DNA of 64,000 nt from an uncultured bacterium (GCA_965370295.1 CBDUSO010000003.1:7059-71058), one strand, 5' to 3'; counted from the stretch's first letter, positions 4,822-59,035 are shown. A program made the numbers and translations. The notes: generated by a model from the sequence alone, not told the origin.

Positions 4822-4843
4822 AGAAGACTGGAGGAAGCACACT

Positions 4844-4957
4844 ATGAAGGTTAGAGTGTCAGTAAAACCAATTTGTGAAAAATGCAAAACCATTCGACGC
4901 AAAGGTCGAGTGATGGTGATTTGTGAAAACCCAAAACACAAACAGAGACAGAAATAG
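4844..4957 (+). CDS. rpmJ: 50S ribosomal protein L36
   Basis: This 37-aa ORF is not in the supplied track (too short). [37 protein letters not shown] carries the canonical C-x2-C-x12-C-x4-H L36 zinc ribbon, and it lies between infA and rpsM. Confidence 0.85.
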
Positions 4958-4967
4958 GAGTATGTAA

Positions 4968-5339
4968 ATGCCACGAATTTCAGGTGTAGACATTCCAGCT
5001 AACAAACGTGTAGATATTTCTCTGCGTTACATCTACGGCATTGGTCCTGTCAATGCTCATGAGGTTGTCGAGAAGGCCGGTATTGATCCCTTAAAGAGAA
5101 TGAAAGAGCTCACAAAAGAAGAGCTTGAGAAGATCAATGAGGTTCTAAACAACGATTATAAGGTTGAGGGAGACCTCAGACAAGAAGTCACCCAGAACAT
5201 CAAACGCCTTATTGAAATCGGTTCGTACAGAGGTCTCAGACACAAACGCGGTCTCCCTGTCAGAGGACAGAGAACACGTACAAATGCACGTACCCGTAAG
5301 GGTAGATCTCATGCAGTCGGCATTTCAAGAAAGAAATAA
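4968..5339 (+). CDS. rpsM: 30S ribosomal protein S13
   Basis: [15 protein letters not shown]… is an S13 N-terminus. AGGAG RBS upstream. Confidence 0.9.
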
Positions 5340-5351
5340 GGAGTAAGGGAT

Positions 5352-5726
5352 ATGGCTAAGAAAAAAAGAGTAAAAAAGCTGGTCTCTGAGGGACGAATCT
5401 ATATTCATTGCAGTTTCAACAACTGCATTGTTTCTATCACTGACAAAGATGGCGGTGTGGTAGCATGGTCATCCGGTGGTGAGAGTGGTTTCAAGGGAAC
5501 AAGAAAAGGAACAGGATTTGCAGCCCAGGTAGTAGCCCAGAATGCTTGTAAAAAAGCAATGGACATGGGTATGAAAGAAGCCAGATTGTTTGTCAAAGGT
5601 CCGGGTTCTGGCAGAGAAACTGCAATCCGTTCAATAGGTAACTCAGGTATCACAATAACCGCAATCAAAGACATCACTCCAATTCCACACAACGGATGCC
5701 GTCCACCAAAGATCAGGAGAGTATAA
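5352..5726 (+). CDS. rpsK: 30S ribosomal protein S11
   Basis: 124 aa with S11 sequence. Confidence 0.9.
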
Positions 5727-5729
5727 AAG

Positions 5730-6362
5730 ATGGGTAGATACACAGGACCAGTCTGCAGACTTTGCAGAAGAGAAAAAAACAAGCTCTATCTCAAGGGTGC
5801 AAGATGTTTTGGAGCAAAGTGTCCACTCGAAGGGAACTATCATATTCCCGGAATGCACGGACCAAAGAAGAGACCAAGAGAAAAGATTTCTGATTATGGA
5901 CTTCACCTCAGGGAAAAACAGAGAGTAAGAAGAACATATGGAATGATGGAGAATCAGTTCAAGAATTATTTCGTGGTTGCCAAAAATCAGAGAACTATTC
6001 CAACCGGTGACAAACTGCTTGAGCTCCTGGAGAGAAGACTCGATAACGTTCTGTATCGTGCATCTCTTGCCCCAAGTCGAACATCAGCAAGACAGATTAT
6101 CAACCATGCTCACATCAGAGTGAATGGTAAGAGATTGGATATCCCCTCATACATCGTCAAACCCGGTGACTCCATTGAAATCAAACCAAAGGCAAGAAAA
6201 ATTAATCTGATCGAAGAAGCTATCAAATCACCTGTCACACCACCATCATGGATGACATTTGATGAAAAAAACTTTAAAGTTGAAATTCTTAGAATTCCAA
6301 CGATTTCAGACATAGACTCGACCGTCAACATCCAGCTTGTGGTTGAGTATTACTCAAGGTAG
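5730..6362 (+). CDS. rpsD: 30S ribosomal protein S4 (Cys4 N-terminal type)
   Basis: MGRYTGPVCRLCRREKNKLYLKG…C…C, followed by an S4 RNA-binding domain. Confidence 0.9.
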   Translation: MGRYTGPVCRLCRREKNKLYLKGARCFGAKCPLEGNYHIPGMHGPKKRPREKISDYGLHLREKQRVRRTYGMMENQFKNYFVVAKNQRTIPTGDKLLELLERRLDNVLYRASLAPSRTSARQIINHAHIRVNGKRLDIPSYIVKPGDSIEIKPKARKINLIEEAIKSPVTPPSWMTFDEKNFKVEILRIPTISDIDSTVNIQLVVEYYSR

Positions 6363-50793: not shown

Positions 50794-51165
50794 TCAGTCG
50801 TGTGATTTTGAGTAGTCTTCTTCGGAGAGAAGCTCATCAAGTTCAGACAGGTTTGATAGTTTAACCTTTACGATCCAGCCCTCATCTTCAGCGGATTTGT
50901 TTACGATGCCTGCTTCTGACGAGAGTATCTCGTTGAACTCAATCACTTCACCTGTAACTGGTGAATAAACATCAGTTGCGGCTTTTACTGATTCGATGGC
51001 GGTCAGGATTCCACCTTTTTCGAGTTTGTGTCCAACTGGAATTTCCTCGATAAAGATAAGGTCTCCAAGCTGTTCCTGAGCATAGTTGCTGATTCCAATT
51101 ATTGCAACATCCCCGTCGACTTTGACGTACTCATCGGTTTTTGTGTATAGGGTTTTCATCATCAA
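50794..51165 (-). CDS. gcvH: glycine cleavage system H protein (canonical lipoyl-lysine ESVKA)
   Basis: …ILTAIESVKAATDVYSPVTGEV…. Confidence 0.85.
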   Translation of the reverse strand: MMMKTLYTKTDEYVKVDGDVAIIGISNYAQEQLGDLIFIEEIPVGHKLEKGGILTAIESVKAATDVYSPVTGEVIEFNEILSSEAGIVNKSAEDEGWIVKVKLSNLSELDELLSEEDYSKSHD

Positions 51166-51171
51166 ACCTCC

Positions 51172-51570
51172 TTATTTATTCTTGATCTCTCCAAGCTCTG
51201 AGAGATTGTTTATACTCGGTATTTTACATCTGATTATCCAACCGTCACCGATTGTGTCATCAGAAACAAGATTTGGTTTGCGGTTGAGTTTTGTGTTGAA
51301 CTTGGTTACTTGCCCGACAACAGGTGATTTGAGTGGCCAGTCACCTTCTTTTTCGGTCTCAAGGATTCCGATTATGCCATCTTTGGACAACACTTTGCCC
51401 ATCGGAATCTGGTCGACGTATGTTATCGATCCCAATTTTGAAACTATGGATGGCAACAATCCGATATAGAATTCACCATCCTCAACGGAAACCCAACAAT
51501 CATTTATTTCGACATATTCATTTACGTTCATAACACCGGTGATTTTATTATTGGTTGCCCATTCAGTCAA
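51172..51570 (-). CDS. GcvH-like lipoyl-carrier paralog (divergent lipoyl motif ETEKEGDWPLKSPVVGQV)
   Basis: 132 aa with a GcvH fold pattern. Sits where gcvT would normally be. Confidence 0.6.
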   Translation of the reverse strand: MTEWATNNKITGVMNVNEYVEINDCWVSVEDGEFYIGLLPSIVSKLGSITYVDQIPMGKVLSKDGIIGILETEKEGDWPLKSPVVGQVTKFNTKLNRKPNLVSDDTIGDGWIIRCKIPSINNLSELGEIKNK

Positions 51571-51690: not shown

Positions 51691-52107
51691 ATGCCAGAGA
51701 TTGGAGATTACAATCTGCCAGAGGACCTTTATTACCACAAGGAACATTTTTGGGTAAAGGTAGACGGAAACACGGCCATTGTTGGAATGGATGATTTCGG
51801 AACAAAGCTTGCCGGTGAAATCTCTTTCATTGAACTTCCAATGGAAGACGACGAGGTTGGTTTTGATGAGCAGGTGGGTTCACTTGAAACAGGTAAGTGG
51901 TTGGGAAAAATTTACAGCCCAGTATCTGGAACAGTTTCAGCTCTCAACGAAGACATCGAGGATGATCCTGCAATCGTAAACGAATCACCATACGAAAACT
52001 GGCTTTTCAAAGTTGAAATGGGCGACAAGTCCGAACTTGAAAAGTTGATCACAGGTGCAGCTATTGCCCCGTGGCTCGAAAAAGAAATTGAAGAGCGTGG
52101 AAAGTAA
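51691..52107 (+). CDS. GcvH-like lipoyl-carrier paralog 3
   Basis: …VGSLETGKWLGKIYSPVSGTV… with a GAAGGAGG RBS. Its 3' end overlaps the start of the large membrane protein gene. Confidence 0.6.
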   Translation: MPEIGDYNLPEDLYYHKEHFWVKVDGNTAIVGMDDFGTKLAGEISFIELPMEDDEVGFDEQVGSLETGKWLGKIYSPVSGTVSALNEDIEDDPAIVNESPYENWLFKVEMGDKSELEKLITGAAIAPWLEKEIEERGK

Positions 52108-54805
52108 AAAGAAGTTCAAGGGGGCGGGATTATTTCTCGCTCTCTTTCTGATTCTTACACTCATCTTTCCGTTTTTTCCACCCGCAAATGCTCAGCAGAA
52201 ACCCAATGTCCAAAAACTCGTTGCATACTTCGTGCTTAAATCTGATGGAAGTGCAAGGGTCAAATTAAACCTTCAAATAAAAGAGACCGAATCAAGAAGC
52301 TCTCTTGTTTTAGGTCCATTCATGTCTGGTTATTCAAATCTTACAGCTGTAATCTACAAAGGCTCTTTGGACGGCTTTATTTTAGATACCAATTTAAGCT
52401 CTGTCCCTGTTTCAGTCAGTAACTACGATGGAAACATCAAGCAATTCAATTATTCCAGCTCCTCTTCGTACAACGAAACCTATGTTATTCACCTTGAATA
52501 TAATCTCCCCGATATTTCCGTCAAAAGTTTCATGAATGGTTACAGGGATATTGGCTGGTCACCGTTTCAAGCATCTCAAACAATTGACAACGTTATTGTC
52601 CAAGTTGTTTTGCCAATATCGTTACCAGATGACGTTGATACTCCGGAAGAGGTAACGAGCGATCTGGTCAACGAAAAAGGTTTCATCATGGCAACCGACT
52701 CGTCTGGTGACTCAAAAACCTCTGACAAAAAATTTGACAGATTTGTTTTTTTCCCGACACCAGACAGTGCAAGTGGAATGAATTTCCTCTCATTCCATGC
52801 TGAGAAAAAAAATGCACCAGCATATTTTCATGCTCAGGTAACATTCAGTCTCCCCGAGAAATATTTTGGTGGAACACTTCCAGATGAAGTTATAAAGAAA
52901 ATTTTCAAACTAAATGTTTCAACGATTGCAGATGGTTTGAACGATATAACAGTTCTTAACACACCAAACATGACCTCCACAAAAAAAATCATCATCACAC
53001 GAAGAATTGGTGATGGTGTTGAAGAACTTGTTACGGGTGAACTCAAGGAAGATGGATTTGAGAAGTATTCAGTTACCGATAACTATGACCCGACAACTTT
53101 GGAATCAATCACCTATAAAGCCTATCTGTTGAAGGTTCCAAGAGACAAAAAAGACCGATTTCAGAAGCTGAGATATGTGAGTTTTGATGTTGGACGACTC
53201 AAAGCAGAATTTGAAATTCTCAGCTCCACTCAAGAGGTCTCTTTTGAGCAGGCACCTGGACAGTCAGTTCTTTCTGCGAAGCTGGACATCACGCTTGACA
53301 AAAAGGGAACTGCAATCGTAAAGGTTGAGAGAGATTCTCTCTTTAAGGGCGATCAGAGTCTCTGGAGTGATTGTCTGCACTTTGATTTTGATGATTATCA
53401 ATATCTCACGGATTGCTGGTTTACAGATTTCAAAGATGACAAGAAAAACGAGTATATCTTGTCCTCCAGGGGATCAGAGGGAACATACAATATAAGCCCT
53501 GAAATTGGCTGGGTCGATTGGTATTGGGGTGCTTACAACGAGACTCGTCATTTTGAATATGGATACAAAATCTATGGCTCTTTTGTAAAAACTAATGATT
53601 GGTCGACGAACGAGGAAAAGCAGGAAATTTTATTGCTTCCACTCATAAGTGCCGGTGTTTCAAACATTCCAAAACTTGAAGTAATCATAACCGTACCAGA
53701 TGGATTCCCTGCACCAACCTTTTCTGAGGGTCTGGAAAATGTAGCAGTTGAAACAAGTGGCAACACACACAACTTTATTTTAAGTGGCAATCAGGTTGAC
53801 GATTATTCCAGCATGATGTTCCCAGAGGGTACGTTCAAAAAAGGCTTACTTTGGTCCAGGTGGTGGATTGACCATAAGGGAACCATCTATTTCTGGTTGT
53901 TTGTGTTGCTCATTTTCCTGTTCACCTATTGGTTGATAAGCAGAGGAAAGAGGGCGGGTCGAAGAAATTTGATCAAAAAGGCTACCAAATATGAGTCTCC
54001 TGAGATTGAACTTGAAACCTACACGATTGAGGGGAAAGTTCCTGATCTTTCTGCAATTGAAACCGCAATGTATCTTGGCAAACATGACAAGGTCATCGCT
54101 GGAATTGTGTTGCAACTGTCAGCTAAAGGTGCGATAACGATCATCACTCACAGACCGCTTCAACTCGAAAAAACAAATCCAAAACTGGCAACAGAGCCTT
54201 ACGAAAAAGTTCTGATGGAAAACATTTCCCCCGAAGGAACAATCTCAAGAGAAGCCGTCCCAAAAATTATTGACTCAGTTTCAAAAGAACTCTCAGTCAA
54301 GATTTGGGATGCTGACCCAACTGCAACCAGAACGCATTACACCAATGTTGTGAAAAAACGCTGGGATGACATACTCACAGATTCAACTCCAAGGAATTCA
54401 TCATACTTCCAAAGAAACATGGCATGGCTTATCATTCACAATGATTACGCCAAAAATTTCAATAAAATTCCAAAAGCCCAACGACCCAAGACGGACAGTT
54501 GGGCTGTTAAGGCTGTTGACGGAATTGAAGATTTCACTGAGGGAATTGTCTCCAGTGTCCAAAGTTCCGTTGCAAAGGCAACAAACGCAATTGAACAGGC
54601 ACTTGGTTTGGGAACTCCAAACGTAGAAAATCTGTCATACGATGCCTGCCATTCCGCTTGTCATTCAGCCTGCCACAGTGCTTGTGTGCATGATGCCTGC
54701 CATTCTGCTTGTGTTCATTCAGCCTGCCATTCTGCCTGCCACTCTGCCTGCGTCCATTCTGCCTGCCATTCTGCCTGCCATTCAGCCTGTGTATCGGGAA
54801 TCTGA
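52097..54805 (+). CDS. single-pass membrane protein (DUF2207-like architecture?) with cytoplasmic C-terminal (AC[V]HS)x12 Cys/His repeat tail; candidate substrate of the downstream radical SAM enzyme
   Basis: From GTG 52097 the product begins with a signal peptide, MESKKKFKGAGLFLALFLILTLIFPFFPPANA. The track ORF instead starts at GTG 52055. About 590 aa are extracytoplasmic, followed by a TM helix IYFWLFVLLIFLFTYWLI and then SRGKRAGRR (positive-inside). The cytoplasmic domain is about 290 aa and ends …NLSYDACHSACHSACHSACVHDACHSACVHSACHSACHSACVHSACHSACHSACVSGI. Confidence 0.6.
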   Translation: MESKKKFKGAGLFLALFLILTLIFPFFPPANAQQKPNVQKLVAYFVLKSDGSARVKLNLQIKETESRSSLVLGPFMSGYSNLTAVIYKGSLDGFILDTNLSSVPVSVSNYDGNIKQFNYSSSSSYNETYVIHLEYNLPDISVKSFMNGYRDIGWSPFQASQTIDNVIVQVVLPISLPDDVDTPEEVTSDLVNEKGFIMATDSSGDSKTSDKKFDRFVFFPTPDSASGMNFLSFHAEKKNAPAYFHAQVTFSLPEKYFGGTLPDEVIKKIFKLNVSTIADGLNDITVLNTPNMTSTKKIIITRRIGDGVEELVTGELKEDGFEKYSVTDNYDPTTLESITYKAYLLKVPRDKKDRFQKLRYVSFDVGRLKAEFEILSSTQEVSFEQAPGQSVLSAKLDITLDKKGTAIVKVERDSLFKGDQSLWSDCLHFDFDDYQYLTDCWFTDFKDDKKNEYILSSRGSEGTYNISPEIGWVDWYWGAYNETRHFEYGYKIYGSFVKTNDWSTNEEKQEILLLPLISAGVSNIPKLEVIITVPDGFPAPTFSEGLENVAVETSGNTHNFILSGNQVDDYSSMMFPEGTFKKGLLWSRWWIDHKGTIYFWLFVLLIFLFTYWLISRGKRAGRRNLIKKATKYESPEIELETYTIEGKVPDLSAIETAMYLGKHDKVIAGIVLQLSAKGAITIITHRPLQLEKTNPKLATEPYEKVLMENISPEGTISREAVPKIIDSVSKELSVKIWDADPTATRTHYTNVVKKRWDDILTDSTPRNSSYFQRNMAWLIIHNDYAKNFNKIPKAQRPKTDSWAVKAVDGIEDFTEGIVSSVQSSVAKATNAIEQALGLGTPNVENLSYDACHSACHSACHSACVHDACHSACVHSACHSACHSACVHSACHSACHSACVSGI
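54644..54792 (+). repeat. tandem 12-nt coding repeats (gcctgccattct variants, about 12 units) encoding the AC(V)HS tail
   Basis: Periodicity is directly visible in the sequence. Antisense and out-of-frame ORFs over this stretch (54534..54893 -, 54642..54839 +) are artefacts of the repeat. Confidence 0.85.
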
Positions 54806-56187
54806 TGGAACTAAAAAAATATATAGAGAGTGTGATTGAAAGCACTCGTGAGCATATTTTCATCCGTGATGAAGATGGAATTTTGATAATCAAACCAAAT
54901 CGGGTTCATAATCTGAACCCGACTGCAACTCAACTTTTGAGCAGGATGTATCAAGAAGACCCCGATAACCCATACCAAGCCGTAATTGATATGGCTAAGG
55001 AGTTTGGTGAACCCGAAGAACGAGTTGCAACTGATGCAAAAAAAGTCCTTGATACACTTCTTGATCTGTTGAAAAATCCCTTTGCCATGGTGTCTGGCGT
55101 TAAGATGACAACCTTTGGCTCACACAAACGAGATTTGCCCGTTCTTTCGGAGATTGCTTTGACATATGGCTGTAACAACAAGTGTGTTTTTTGTTATGCT
55201 TCCTCCCCGGAACGTGTTGATGATGTTCCCCAGATGACAACCGACGAAGTCAAAAAAATTCTAAGAATTATCAGAGAAACTGCAAAGATTCCAACTGTCT
55301 CATTTACGGGCGGAGAACCCACAATGAGAAAGGATTTACCGGAACTTGTCGAGTATGCAAAGTCAATCGACATGCGGGTAAATCTCATCTCAAATGGAGT
55401 CTTGCTCGCAAGCGGTGACTTGGCTGAAAGGCTGGTTTCAGCAGGACTTGACTCTGCTCAGATTTCCCTTGAATCAAGCATTCCAGAGGTACATGACAAA
55501 GTTGTTGGAGTAAAAGGAACATTCGAAAAAACTGTTGCAGGATTCAAAAAAATAAAAAAACTTGGAATCCACTGCCATATCAACACAACAATCTGTGCGG
55601 ATAACTTTGCTACAATCACTGAACTGCCAAAGTTTGCACGAGACGAACTGGGTTTGGAGTACCAATCCATGAATATGGTAATTCGAACTGGGCATACCTA
55701 CGACAACCCGGACGAAATTGGATACACTGAGATTGCAAAGATTTTACCGAAGTTGCATGAATCAGCAAAGCAGGCAGGAATCAAACTTGTCTGGTATTCA
55801 CCAATTCCATTTTGCATCATAAACACAATTGCAGAGGGAATCGGTGGGACAACCTGTGCCGCTTGCGACGGGCTTCTCTCGATTGCTCCAAATGGTGATG
55901 TCCTCCCGTGTTCATCTTTCTCAGATGGAATCGGAAATCTTTTGAGAGAGCCATTTGAAAAAATCTGGTGGAACAGGCAAGCTCTTTATTTCAGAAAAAA
56001 AGAGTTTATCCCGCCCGTCTGCAAGGATTGCGACAGTGCTCCAATGTGTCAGGGGGCGTGTCCACTCTATTGGGATAACAGAGGAAACTTTGATGAAATC
56101 GGTGGAAGTTCAAAGTTGAGCTCTTCCATCTGGAAGCTCAAAAGAAAACTGGTTGGTCGCTCAAAACCAGTGATGGGGGTAAAATAA
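54805..56187 (+). CDS. radical SAM/SPASM-domain enzyme with N-terminal PqqD-like RRE domain (RiPP-type maturase)
   Basis: ATG 54805 overlaps the upstream TGA (TGATG). Residues ~20-95 are PqqD/RRE-like (…VHNLNPTATQLLSRMYQ…VIDMAKEFGEPEERVATDAKKVLDTLLDL). The rSAM motif is CNNKCVFC. The SPASM domain has 7 cysteines: CAACDG…C…C-KDC…CQGACP. Confidence 0.8.
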   Translation: MELKKYIESVIESTREHIFIRDEDGILIIKPNRVHNLNPTATQLLSRMYQEDPDNPYQAVIDMAKEFGEPEERVATDAKKVLDTLLDLLKNPFAMVSGVKMTTFGSHKRDLPVLSEIALTYGCNNKCVFCYASSPERVDDVPQMTTDEVKKILRIIRETAKIPTVSFTGGEPTMRKDLPELVEYAKSIDMRVNLISNGVLLASGDLAERLVSAGLDSAQISLESSIPEVHDKVVGVKGTFEKTVAGFKKIKKLGIHCHINTTICADNFATITELPKFARDELGLEYQSMNMVIRTGHTYDNPDEIGYTEIAKILPKLHESAKQAGIKLVWYSPIPFCIINTIAEGIGGTTCAACDGLLSIAPNGDVLPCSSFSDGIGNLLREPFEKIWWNRQALYFRKKEFIPPVCKDCDSAPMCQGACPLYWDNRGNFDEIGGSSKLSSSIWKLKRKLVGRSKPVMGVK

Positions 56188-57345
56188 ATGAGAAAAGACC
56201 TGGATGGAACAATCAGCGTTGTTGATGCCTGGATAAAGGACATCAAGTCTCTTCAAAATGAAATTGCCGAAATTAATTCTGTCTGGATTACCGAACTTGG
56301 AAGTCTTGAAACCGACAAACTCAAAGAGGTTGGCAAGCTGTCGCAGTGGCTTAAGGACAATATCCAGACACTCCCAGCTTCTTCCAAAACAGGAGTAGAA
56401 AAATTCTGGGACAAAGAGAAAAAACTTTTGAAGGCAGAAACTCAAAAACTTGAAAAAAGTATCAAAAAAAATATGTCGGAAAGCTTTGAACTTGAGATTG
56501 AAATAAACAAACATCGCAAAAAAGTTGAGGAAGATAATCCTGAGTTTGATGAGCAGGAAGAAGCTCTGAAATCTAAGATTGAAGAAGTGCTTGCGGATGT
56601 TAAGGATGTTGACAGGGAGTTAGCCAAATATGACAGTTTCAGAGGTTGGTTCAACGGAAAACGAGTCAAAAAACTGAAAACTGAATTTGACAAAAAGATG
56701 AGGAAGCTGAATCGTTTGACCGGCAGGCTTGAGGAGCTTCGAGGTACATGGCACAAGACATTGTCTGACAAGGATAGTTCTGAAAATGAAAAGCAGGATT
56801 TCTGGGCAAAGCTCCAAAATTTTATCACCGAGGATAAATTTGAACTTGGTCATATCGAAGAGCAGTTTGACGACATCACACTTTCAAATGTTGTGCTTGA
56901 AATGTTAGACATTGATACTCCCAATGGTTTTCCCAAGGAGCAAAATGAAAGTTTCAGTAAGGCAAAAAAACTCAAAAGTCGAGTGGAAAGCATAAACAAA
57001 GGCATCAAACGTCTGGCTTCCTTGATTGGAGCAATCAATGGTGTAGGCAAGGGTTTATCTGAAATGAACAAGAGTTTTCATTCTCTCAGGAAAACTCAAC
57101 GAGCACACACCCAACTTCCGAAGTTGTCTATAGAAATCCCGGATAATGTAGTCAAATACAATTCAATCTGGCAGACCCTCGTCCCAAAAGTAAAAAATGA
57201 GAAAAAATTTGTGGACGATCCAACCCACCTTGCTGATGAATTTGACAAGATTGGAAGCAAATATCTAAGCATGGAAAATATCAAAACCATGTTTGATTTG
57301 TTTGGTGGTGCCTTGAAAGAATCAACCGCAGGATGGAGTGCATAA
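56188..57345 (+). CDS. hypothetical coiled-coil protein (same operon)
   Basis: ATG immediately follows the rSAM stop (TAAATG). K/E-rich and predicted largely alpha-helical. Confidence 0.5.
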   Translation: MRKDLDGTISVVDAWIKDIKSLQNEIAEINSVWITELGSLETDKLKEVGKLSQWLKDNIQTLPASSKTGVEKFWDKEKKLLKAETQKLEKSIKKNMSESFELEIEINKHRKKVEEDNPEFDEQEEALKSKIEEVLADVKDVDRELAKYDSFRGWFNGKRVKKLKTEFDKKMRKLNRLTGRLEELRGTWHKTLSDKDSSENEKQDFWAKLQNFITEDKFELGHIEEQFDDITLSNVVLEMLDIDTPNGFPKEQNESFSKAKKLKSRVESINKGIKRLASLIGAINGVGKGLSEMNKSFHSLRKTQRAHTQLPKLSIEIPDNVVKYNSIWQTLVPKVKNEKKFVDDPTHLADEFDKIGSKYLSMENIKTMFDLFGGALKESTAGWSA

Positions 57346-57346
57346 T

Positions 57347-57844
57347 ATGTTTGCAAAAAAAATAATCTATGTTTTGTTGTTTGTTGTTGGGGTTGCCTTG
57401 CTCGGACTTGGCTTGTTGTTTTTGATGGGATCAGGTGGAAGTTCAGCAAGATCGATGACAGGTTTTGTGATGATTGGAATTGGAGTCGCAAGCTTGATTG
57501 GTGGCTCTGGCATGAAAGCAAGCGTTAAAAAGAACATGCCATCGATGATTGATGCTGACATGATGAGGCTTGCATCCCGCTCGGATGGAAGAGTGACTGC
57601 AGACATGGCGGTTGCCGACCTTCACATCACAAAAGCTCGAGCCCTTGAATCGCTTGACCGATTATCATCTAGCGGAACCGCAAGACCAGACATGACAGAC
57701 AACGGCGTTGCCTACATCTTTGACCAGGTAAAACCAAAAAGAAAAATCAGAAAATGCTCATACTGTGGTGCAGAATATCCTGTCTCAAAACCAATCACAA
57801 AATGTGAAAACTGTGGTGGAAAGGTGAAATTGGTAGAGCAATAA
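57347..57844 (+). CDS. membrane protein (2 TM) with C-terminal zinc ribbon (CSYCG…CENCGG)
   Basis: ATG 1 nt after the previous stop. The track ORF starts at GTG 57338. Confidence 0.5.
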   Translation: MFAKKIIYVLLFVVGVALLGLGLLFLMGSGGSSARSMTGFVMIGIGVASLIGGSGMKASVKKNMPSMIDADMMRLASRSDGRVTADMAVADLHITKARALESLDRLSSSGTARPDMTDNGVAYIFDQVKPKRKIRKCSYCGAEYPVSKPITKCENCGGKVKLVEQ

Positions 57845-57883
57845 ATAAGTAGTATGTGATTAGAAATATCTGAGGAGGTTTTG

Positions 57884-59035
57884 ATGAGAGGATTATTGAT
57901 TTGTACGGTGGTTGTGATGTTGGTGTCTACGTTGATTTCATGTGGCGGAGTTGGCGTAAACAGCTACTCGCTTGATGGTATCCAGTTGTCTGCTGGCGGT
58001 AGTAGTGAAGCTGTGTTTGTGGCAAAAGAAAATGATTCATCAGATGAAAAAGCAGAACAGACACAGGCAATTTCTTTTGCTTTGAATAATGCGATAAAGG
58101 ATAGACCAGACCTTGCTTTGATGCTTGAAGCTGACATTGTTGATGATGAAAATAATTTTCTTTTCATGGGTTCAGACCATTTTCTCAAAACCCTACAATC
58201 CTTTGCAGATGAAAACTATCCTAAAGCAAAGAAGATGTTTCTAGAGATGACTTGTGAGGAGTTTTATTACTGCACTGCAGTTGGGTACGAAGTGGCAAAC
58301 TCAAATAATGTAAAAACAACATCTGTTGATGTATATATTGACACTGAGCATAAAAATATAGATATAAACCCATCATTTGAAGATATAATAAATCATGGAT
58401 TCTGGGCTACATACTTTGCCAGAATCCATGATTTATTGATCAATGATATTGGTGTTATATCTGAAGATATTGTGTTAGATAACTCACTTGATATGGAATC
58501 TCATGGTATATCATTTGATTCTACAGCAGATATTATACAATTATCTATTATCAATCTTAGTATGGATTGTTTAATCCATAACACGATACAAAATTTTCCT
58601 GAACTGAAAAAAGATGGTCGTGGTTTGGTAAACCAGTTGATGACCCATAAGATGTTGGATCATCTCCAACTATATGGATTTGAAAAGAAACTTTTTACAA
58701 GTTACAGAAGTCGTTTCTCTGAGATTGGCACACAGACCCACTATATGTTATTACTTATCAAAATAAACACCAATCCAGGCGAGAAACAACTACGAATCGG
58801 AGACATATTTGCTGCGAATGGTGAATATCTTTTCCAACTTAGTAAGGGATATGGTATGCATAAATCTGATGCAGAAGGAATAAATGAATCTATTATGGGC
58901 ATGTTTATAGGTGGGAATGATGTTGTAAAATTAGGACATAGGTGGGACAAATGGTTTCGAGATGAGTATCCAAATCCGAATGATAACAAGTTGTACAAAG
59001 GATTATTACAGAATTTAAGTCTTAAAATCCCATAA
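57884..59035 (+). CDS. lipoprotein, unknown function
   Basis: GAGGAGG RBS upstream. Lipobox LISCGG. 383 aa. Confidence 0.5.
   Translation: MRGLLICTVVVMLVSTLISCGGVGVNSYSLDGIQLSAGGSSEAVFVAKENDSSDEKAEQTQAISFALNNAIKDRPDLALMLEADIVDDENNFLFMGSDHFLKTLQSFADENYPKAKKMFLEMTCEEFYYCTAVGYEVANSNNVKTTSVDVYIDTEHKNIDINPSFEDIINHGFWATYFARIHDLLINDIGVISEDIVLDNSLDMESHGISFDSTADIIQLSIINLSMDCLIHNTIQNFPELKKDGRGLVNQLMTHKMLDHLQLYGFEKKLFTSYRSRFSEIGTQTHYMLLLIKINTNPGEKQLRIGDIFAANGEYLFQLSKGYGMHKSDAEGINESIMGMFIGGNDVVKLGHRWDKWFRDEYPNPNDNKLYKGLLQNLSLKIP

Follow-up and report, generated by a model that had tools for sequence, protein, structure and literature searches.

Fixed architecture of a Cys/His-repeat tail on a bacterial membrane protein and its probable role as substrate of an adjacent radical-SAM enzyme

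The locus described here raises the question of whether a short tandem repeat within a gene is a mutational device, through which the number of repeated motifs can change, or a periodic peptide that selection keeps constant. The window, a stretch of 64,000 nucleotides (nt) from an uncultured bacterium (GCA_965370295.1 CBDUSO010000003.1:7059-71058), carries such a repeat at positions 54644-54802 on the + strand, where 12 head-to-tail units form the 3' end of a 916-codon open reading frame (ORF), 52055..54805, and encode the cysteine- and histidine-rich C-terminal tail of a predicted membrane protein. The next gene encodes a radical S-adenosylmethionine (radical-SAM) enzyme. Our analyses indicate that the architecture of the tail is fixed, and the reading that we prefer, with a probability of roughly two in three, is that the tail is the substrate ('core') module of the adjacent radical-SAM maturase and stays on the membrane protein.

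The original prediction, made from the sequence alone, described the tract as perfect 12-nt tandem repeats encoding AC(V)HS. Translation in the frame of the ORF confirmed that a tandem coding repeat of 12 units begins at 54644 and that its units encode this motif, but the repeats are not perfect. The peptide reads YD-ACHS x3, ACVHD, ACHS, ACVHS, ACHS x2, ACVHS, ACHS x2, ACVSGI and stop; eight units are of 12 nt, three are of 15 nt through an additional Val codon, and a diverged terminal unit closes the array. The sequence gcctgccattct is matched exactly by only three of the eight ACHS units, the other five carrying one to three synonymous differences, and one switch of a serine codon from TCN to AGT is found among them. 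At period 12, Tandem Repeats Finder gave 76% matches and 13% indels; the array scored higher at periods 39 and 66 and therefore has higher-order structure. Perfect 12-nt periodicity extends at most over 30 nt (54754-54783, approximately 2.5 units), and this is the sole segment of the tract that comes near a classical slippage substrate. The periodicity is far beyond chance, yet it is located at the level of the peptide, where 12 Cys and 11 His fall within 53 amino acids (aa 864-916) in a strict CxxxC/HxxxH spacing.

Relatives were collected by a genome scan with the enzyme as query, which returned nine loci in Caldisericia/Caldisericales metagenome-assembled genomes (MAGs; 62-79% identity) and one in an archaeon-labelled MAG (42%), and by a metagenome scan seeded on an alignment that included the tail motif, which returned at least 442 relatives, the best 80 of which were read. 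Seeding on that motif, together with the ranking of hits by similarity, biases the sampling toward similar tails. The matches of the enzyme assign the window to a Caldisericia bacterium. Between the window and its Caldisericia orthologues the whole tail protein is 40-69% identical. Averaged over pairs of Caldisericia loci, identity falls from 0.92 in the tail to 0.63 in the cytoplasmic domain that precedes it and 0.40 in the ectodomain; conservation of the tail thus far exceeds that of its carrier. The 12-unit order of the window recurs in eight of the nine other Caldisericia loci; the tail peptides of two of these (L008 and L002) equal that of the window residue for residue, six (L003-L007 and L009) have one additional Cys (ACVCHS or ACDCHS), and the remaining one (L001) has exactly one ACHS unit fewer. 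Overall, 72 of 89 tails share the order of three short units, a long, a short, a long, two short, a long (or long plus Cys), two short and a terminal unit, and the other 17 have 9-11 units. The residues A-C-H of the unit are invariant, the fourth position takes the small or polar residues S, D, N, G, A and T, and the terminal unit has the form ACVS-G/S-I/F. Judged from these alignments, the tail is under purifying selection and constrained residue by residue, and for this reason unit number and order stay constant while synonymous sites drift.

This constancy bears directly on the proposal of the original prediction that the tract is a slippage-prone coding microsatellite, whose unit number varies between strains or cells and thereby tunes the count of modifiable motifs. 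Several observations would suit such a process. The unit lengths of 12 and 15 nt are divisible by three, as in the tandem in-frame coding repeats of contingency loci; a 30-nt perfectly periodic stretch is present; the last five full units of the window are unusually uniform; L001 amounts to an exact in-frame deletion of one unit; and units number 9-11 in 17 of the 89 loci and 2-12 in distant relatives. However, the unit copies are imperfect, and copy number and architecture are those of the window tail in eight of the nine orthologues from Caldisericia and in 72 of the 89 loci, which contradicts variation among related assemblies. Relatedness was scored as nt identity in the sequence preceding the tail, of which at most 700 nt were compared and at least 250 nt had to align; the 22 locus pairs with 90% identity or more all agree in tail length, as do 20 of the 21 pairs at 80-90%.

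The synonymous sites also speak against slippage, as they show units that are not homogenised, with third positions scrambled under a constant peptide. In 175 locus pairs with an identical tail peptide and different DNA, third codon positions were identical at a median of 56%; the window tail, although it differs from neither in any amino acid, agrees with L008 at 57% of its third positions and with L002 at 40%. ACHS units of one genome resemble each other at third positions no more when they are neighbours (0.544) than when they are not (0.568), and orthologous units are closer than paralogous units in the moderately close pairs L003/L004 (0.56 versus 0.38) and L006/L007 (0.81 versus 0.52), while the window and L008 show no difference between orthologous and non-orthologous units (0.59 versus 0.58). 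Switches between TCN and AGY serine codons also occur among tail units. Where the signal is unsaturated, these comparisons point to tail units that evolve independently and not in concert.

The uniformity of the last units of the window has, in part, a different source. Nine of the 12 Ala codons in the tail, all preceding Cys, are GCC, as against 14% genome-wide (P=3e-6); in the other genes of the window, Ala is encoded by GCC in 14% and by GCA in 52% of cases. Relatives of every GC class likewise favour GCC for the Ala that precedes Cys, and the uniform units are thus partly due to a family-wide preference. Among the Ala codons only GCC creates no out-of-frame ATG, GTG or TTG across the GCN/TGY boundary, which is a possible cause of the bias.

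In the assembled loci compared, none of the marks of a contingency locus was found: a long identical run, copy-number polymorphism among close genomes or synonymous homogenisation. In contrast to such loci, tails of the window type have imperfect units that are not homogenised and whose number is constant among related genomes. What stood of the proposed variation in unit number is its occurrence over deep time, as L001 has lost one unit and counts of 9-12 and 2-12 are found more widely; among near-identical loci it did not hold. Distant relatives have tails of anything between 2 and 12 units; unit number has therefore grown and shrunk over deep time, and gain or loss of whole units is fixed rarely. 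The periodicity of the tract is kept by selection on the peptide and is not a mutational device. We regard the slippage-variable explanation as largely refuted and hardly probable. The tract is a cautionary case, in which a strongly selected periodic peptide resembles a microsatellite in raw DNA and behaves in the opposite way to a hypervariable tract.

The second line of evidence comes from the gene that follows the tail, which is almost always one for a radical-SAM/SPASM enzyme. In the window, the stop codon of the tail gene and the start codon of the enzyme gene overlap in TGATG, implying translational coupling. The start of the enzyme gene is most likely ATG 54805; mechanical ORF calling lengthens it by 32 codons to TTG 54709, giving an ORF of 492 aa, because the radical-SAM frame stays open through the repeat. 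The 460-aa enzyme contains a PqqD-like RiPP recognition element (RRE; RiPP, ribosomally synthesised and post-translationally modified peptide) at aa 31-87, a radical-SAM core at aa 119-262 with the CX3CX2C motif CNNKCVFC at aa 123-130, and a SPASM domain whose CX2CX5CX3C motif at aa 406-419 reads CKDCDSAPMCQGAC. The Pfam scores are 106.4 bits for Radical_SAM and 36.4 bits for SPASM. Eight Cys lie between aa 337 and 419, and from its sequence the SPASM domain is predicted to carry the cysteines for two auxiliary Fe-S clusters. An exact protein look-up of the enzyme returned no record.

The linkage of tail and enzyme is kept across lineages. Wherever the sequence suffices to read it, the order in Caldisericia is GcvH-like, tail, radical-SAM, coiled-coil and transmembrane/zinc-ribbon genes, and the same cassette was found in most of the metagenome loci read, on contigs of 31-70% GC. 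Of the 69 metagenome loci whose downstream sequence was long enough, 52 have the start of a radical-SAM homologue no more than 400 nt from the stop codon of the tail gene, and a further six have it within 3 kb. The cassette spans Caldisericia, Chloroflexota-like high-GC contigs, Ozemobacteraceae and the archaeon-labelled MAG. The cytoplasmic domain of the tail protein, stripped of the tail, served as query in an exhaustive search without profiles, which extended the comparison to 139 representative proteins at E<=1e-3, whose full-length deep members fall into two classes. Tails of the first consist of 2-12 ACH[S/D/N/G/A] repeats and end in ACVSG..., whereas those of the second are (CA)n tails such as SCACACACAGCACACAGGGR, ending in ...CACACAGCACACAGGGR; the (CA)n class comprises L163-L165 (P0058) and 47 of the 139 representatives. 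Every deep relative with a contig examined, namely one with a 2-unit tail, four with ACH[S/D]-type tails (P0017, P0038, P0012 and P0004) and one with a (CA)n tail, has a radical-SAM gene next, mostly with a SPASM match (the contig of P0004 is too short for domain annotation of its downstream gene). The linkage to a radical-SAM/SPASM gene thus extends to distant tails of 2 units, of 10 units and of the (CA)n type.

The predicted topology of the tail protein is consistent with access of the enzyme to the tail. The protein is predicted to be a single-pass, DUF2207-like membrane protein with eleven A-C-(V)-H-x units and an ACVS-G/S-I/F end. Its layout comprises a signal or anchor segment at aa 20-46 (ending ...PPANA), an ectodomain of approximately 560 aa (aa 47-608), a transmembrane helix (aa 609-629), a cytoplasmic domain of 234 aa (aa 630-863) and the tail (aa 864-916). 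The basic cluster RGKRAGRR lies past the helix, in a stretch that reads RGKRAGRRNLIKK. As basic residues follow the helix, the C-terminal 287 aa, tail included, are predicted by the positive-inside rule to be cytoplasmic, and tail and enzyme would then face each other on one side of the membrane. The RRE may bind to a segment of the cytoplasmic domain, in which the residues next to the tail are modestly conserved.

Taken together, these observations suggest that the tail is probably the substrate of the neighbouring radical-SAM enzyme. The RRE of the enzyme would dock on a segment upstream of the YD-AC junction of the tail, and the enzyme would then abstract hydrogen atoms, acting once per tail unit, so that Cys-based cross-links, most likely thioethers, would form. 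Thioethers specifically are the weakest step of this scheme and a tentative assignment by analogy with SPASM enzymes that act on repeated Cys motifs. In their other register the tail units read H-x-A-C throughout, with occasional Val spacers, and the NxxC spacing of beta-thioether motifs corresponds to this register. The product would be a rigid, poly-cyclised, His-decorated tail that remains on the membrane protein; that it stays attached is inferred from the window cassette, in which Pfam and NCBIfam scans and synteny revealed no protease, exporter/transporter or metal chaperone gene.

An enzyme of this architecture could also belong to a classical RiPP pathway, in which the modified tail would be cut off its carrier to become a free, peptidic natural product. 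RiPP maturases typically combine an RRE with radical-SAM and SPASM domains, and in the Ozemobacteraceae-type loci L166-L168 a Peptidase_M50B (site-2-protease-like) gene lies directly upstream of the tail gene, which hints at possible intramembrane cleavage of the carrier protein in that clade. The window agrees with a RiPP maturase in its CX3CX2C core and SPASM cysteines, in a borderline PqqD/RRE, and in an adjacent, co-oriented candidate substrate whose linkage is kept across lineages; a short precursor with a leader, accompanied by cleavage and export functions, is not found. Secreted RiPP cores are usually hypervariable, whereas the core here is near-invariant across lineages of 31-70% GC, and its carrier is a membrane protein of 600-900 aa with conserved domains of its own. 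With neither a protease nor an exporter in the window cassette, release as a free peptide is very unlikely.

A further explanation is that the tail is an unmodified metal-binding site for Zn, Cu, Ni or Fe-S, with Cys and His at i, i+1, i+4 and i+5 lining one face of a helix, and that the radical-SAM enzyme acts elsewhere or uses the tail as a docking or cluster-donor site. The density and strict spacing of Cys and His would fit this explanation, as would the invariance of A-C-H beside a tolerant fourth position and the residue-level conservation of the tail, which is typical of ligand sets and not of RiPP cores. The sole structural hint is a single-sequence AlphaFold 2 model of the C-terminal 274 aa (mean predicted local distance difference test score, pLDDT, of 43), in which the tail is drawn as helical at low confidence. 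However, the tail is tightly and widely linked, stop/start overlap included, to an RRE-bearing radical-SAM/SPASM gene, and the cassette is without metal chaperone or transporter genes. The linkage also holds for relatives with differing Cys tails such as (CA)n, and therefore the Cys repeats look like a target of the enzyme and not like one metal site. We consider an unmodified metal-binding tail unlikely, if less so than release of a free peptide; metal binding after modification is compatible with the tail being an enzyme substrate, and both can hold.

Several points nevertheless weigh against taking the tail as the substrate of the enzyme. The chemistry of the tail is wholly inferred, and a conserved Cys/His-rich tail could be a plain metal-binding site. 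The putative precursor is no short peptide: it is a membrane protein of 916 aa, and protease and exporter are missing from its cassette. The match of PF05402 PqqD to the enzyme, at 23.9 bits against a cut-off of 23.4 bits, barely passes. The enzyme has no match to a characterised equivalog, as none of the NCBIfam equivalogs passes its cut-off and the best, AhbD, reaches 141 of the 500 bits required, and its closest solved structures (SkfB, a tetraether synthase, BlsE, SuiB, PqqE and CteB, at E values of 1e-14 or weaker) cover several differing chemistries. In about 10 of the 69 metagenome loci no radical-SAM gene was found in the 1-4 kb available downstream of the tail. Finally, the sample of relatives is biased by its seeding on the tail and its ranking by similarity.

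Comparison with known systems places the window protein near a family that databases have begun to catalogue. The precomputed label of a recent Pfam family, PF27846 'tSAM_targ_Cxxx_rpt', is attached to the relative P0017 and, weakly, to P0038, which were reached through the window cytoplasmic domain at E=1.2e-14 and 3e-8, respectively. Both have ACH[SD] repeat tails that end in ACVSG and a radical-SAM/SPASM gene immediately downstream, and they thus agree with the window protein in the domain, in the type of tail and in the neighbouring gene. These labels imply that curators already recognise radical-SAM targets with CXXX repeats, and the feature that the family name suggests, a period-4 C-terminal Cys repeat adjoining a radical-SAM gene, is present in the window protein. 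The closer relatives P0004 and P0012 carry no PF27846 label. The window subfamily is set apart from the labelled relatives by the ACVH[SD] units that punctuate its 12-unit array, by an ectodomain of much greater size and by the two additional genes of its cassette; it is a new and architecturally distinctive member of this kind of putative target. A literature search on PF27846 returned no function or chemistry for the family, and one on the repeat motif and the tail-protein family returned no paper; the deep relatives are named 'hypothetical protein' in their source records.

The likeness to the ACGX-repeat system (TIGR04340) consists of a period-4 Ala-Cys repeat beside a radical-SAM/SPASM gene. 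The ACGX motif has Gly as its third residue where the window tail has His, the carrier in the window is a large membrane protein, NCBIfam gives no match on the tail, and TIGR04340 scores 87.9 bits on the window enzyme against a cut-off of 400. A tandem short Cys motif with a SPASM maturase is likewise found in PapA/PapB, where PapB cross-links the repeated CXXXD motifs of PapA (freyrasin, a ranthipeptide) as thioethers, one per motif (PMC10739248). PapA is a short secreted peptide with an Asp acceptor at i+4, whereas the window tail is A-C-H-S/D without a CXXXD register and sits on a 916-aa membrane protein, and the PapB model is not among the best 25 NCBIfam matches of the window enzyme. A precedent for a large substrate is the His-Xaa-Ser (HXS) system, in which short His/Ser repeats are carried by a full-length protein, HxsA, that is matured by the radical-SAM enzymes HxsB and HxsC (PMC13128918). 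In contrast, the window tail reads H-S-A-C with no H-x-S, there is one radical-SAM enzyme and not two, there is no HxsD, and the enzyme scores 90.7 bits against the HxsC cut-off of 267.9 and 98.8 against the HxsC4 cut-off of 500. In addition, the HXS effector is periplasmic, whereas the window tail is predicted to be cytoplasmic.

The most far-reaching reading of the data is that the cassette is an uncharacterised, phylum-spanning four-gene system, in which the enzyme would not make a secreted peptide but would turn a nearly invariant cytoplasmic tail into a tethered, poly-cross-linked Cys/His structure. Such a structure might serve in metal binding or redox chemistry, as a cofactor derived from the protein itself, or in signalling at the membrane. 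This reading is rather improbable; if true, the tethered structure would represent a new functional class of radical-SAM-matured proteins. A cross-link pattern not seen before, or a cofactor tethered to a membrane protein, might come to light at this cassette.

The features of the locus are collected in Table 1.

Table 1. Position and basis of the features assigned in and around the tail-bearing cassette.
Feature	Position	Strand	Basis or remark
GcvH-family gene directly upstream of the tail gene	51691..52107	+	NCBIfam GcvH, 121.8 versus cut-off 117 bits
Gene for 916-aa membrane protein carrying the tail	52055..54805	+	ORF, hydropathy, orthologue alignment
Transmembrane helix, aa 609-629	53879..53941	+	Kyte-Doolittle window plus positive-inside rule
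Conserved cytoplasmic domain ending in conserved YD	53942..54643	+	Pairwise identity, homologue search
Spurious 119-aa antisense ORF, poly-NGRQ	54534..54893	-	By-product of the repeat
Spurious 65-aa ORF, poly-PAIL	54642..54839	+	Other frame; by-product of the stop-free repeat
Cys/His repeat tail, 12 units	54644..54802	+	Sequence, repeat scan, codon-level unit comparison
Longest perfect period-12 stretch, 30 nt	54754..54783	+	Periodicity scan
TGATG stop/start overlap	54803..54807	+	Tail TGA 54803-54805, radical-SAM ATG 54805-54807, one base shared
Gene for 460-aa PqqD(RRE)/radical-SAM/SPASM enzyme	54805..56187	+	Pfam domains, motifs
Gene for 385-aa coiled-coil protein, third of cassette	56188..57345	+	Weak SMC/Rad50-type coiled-coil matches only; synteny
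Gene for 168-aa transmembrane-hairpin/zinc-ribbon protein, fourth of cassette	57338..57844	+	Topology, motif, synteny

Both of the spurious ORFs that the original prediction expected the repeat to generate, one in another frame and one on the opposite strand, are real. Protein collections also hold frameshifted or alternative-frame translations of such tails (PATRPATVPAT... and LSFGLPLPLGL...), as in P0020, P0053, P0125, P0131 and P0010.

The 916-aa protein had no match in Pfam or NCBIfam, and neither had the tail alone. DUF2207 (PF09972) gave no match to the window protein at E<=0.01 and 15.5-20.3 bits on relatives, below the cut-off of 24.4; these sub-threshold matches cover the N-terminal domain, and the DUF2207 label on the relative P0009 is graded 'weak'. 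Homologue searches through a word index, with the whole 916-aa protein and then with the cytoplasmic domain alone, found nothing; for the whole protein, this was probably because words from the repeat swamped the candidate list. A later start codon for the tail gene, considered on account of a terminator-like hairpin at 52118-52146, was rejected, since four hairpin-type matches were found where five are expected by chance and orthologues conserve the N-terminus upstream of it. Attachment of c-type haem, considered as the units can be read as CX3CH, was rejected as well: the tail is on the predicted cytoplasmic side, and the linkage is to a radical-SAM gene and not to cytochrome maturation genes.

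Regarding the other genes of the cassette, the coiled-coil gene begins one base after the radical-SAM stop and is overlapped by 8 nt by the gene for the 168-aa protein, which has an N-terminal transmembrane hairpin and a C-terminal CxxC...CxxC zinc ribbon. Orthologues of the 168-aa protein match Zn_ribbon; its AlphaFold 2 model (pLDDT 63) is confident for the hairpin and the ribbon only, with a disordered middle. PADLOC returned, for the cassette, generic matches of the radical-SAM core to viperin models only and no match for the other four proteins. Defence-island-type neighbours were seen at two distant loci, with TIR and AAA_22 in L170 (2486-5685) and AAA_15/AAA_21 and DUF4276 in L169 (3529-5465); a defence role is suggested only, as two loci are too few for an association.

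Three GcvH-family paralogues lie side by side in the window, at 50794..51165 (-), 51172..51570 (-) and 51691..52107 (+), and adjoin gcvPA/gcvPB-like genes. In all Caldisericia loci the copy on the + strand immediately precedes the tail gene, a place where other lineages lack it; since this neighbourhood is kept only in Caldisericia loci, the GcvH-like gene is probably outside the core cassette. Besides the glycine-cleavage genes, the window neighbours of the cassette include a gene for a 470-aa polytopic membrane protein that looks like a MATE-type exporter. Downstream of the cassette, at 57881-59035, is a gene for a 384-aa lipoprotein-like product without family matches, whose hydrophobic N-terminus ends in ...LISCGG; there are three tandem paralogues of this gene in L008 (9069-12296), one homologue in L001 and none at that place in L002-L007.

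Some of the more distant loci have neighbourhoods of their own. In the loci without an adjacent radical-SAM gene (L112, L115, L117, L119, L130 and others), genes for a phosphodiesterase, a solute-binding protein or a beta-helix protein are found instead. The gene order in the (CA)n loci is tail, radical-SAM/SPASM, second radical-SAM and methyltransferase. In the archaeon-labelled locus L010 (31% GC), the tail consists of nine ACHx units and ACVSGGH, and a gene for a 352-aa polytopic membrane protein separates the tail and radical-SAM genes; the regions 454-1947 and 4839-5897 of this locus were also noted, together with an additional radical-SAM-like gene upstream that, judged by eye, may be of the B12-dependent kind.

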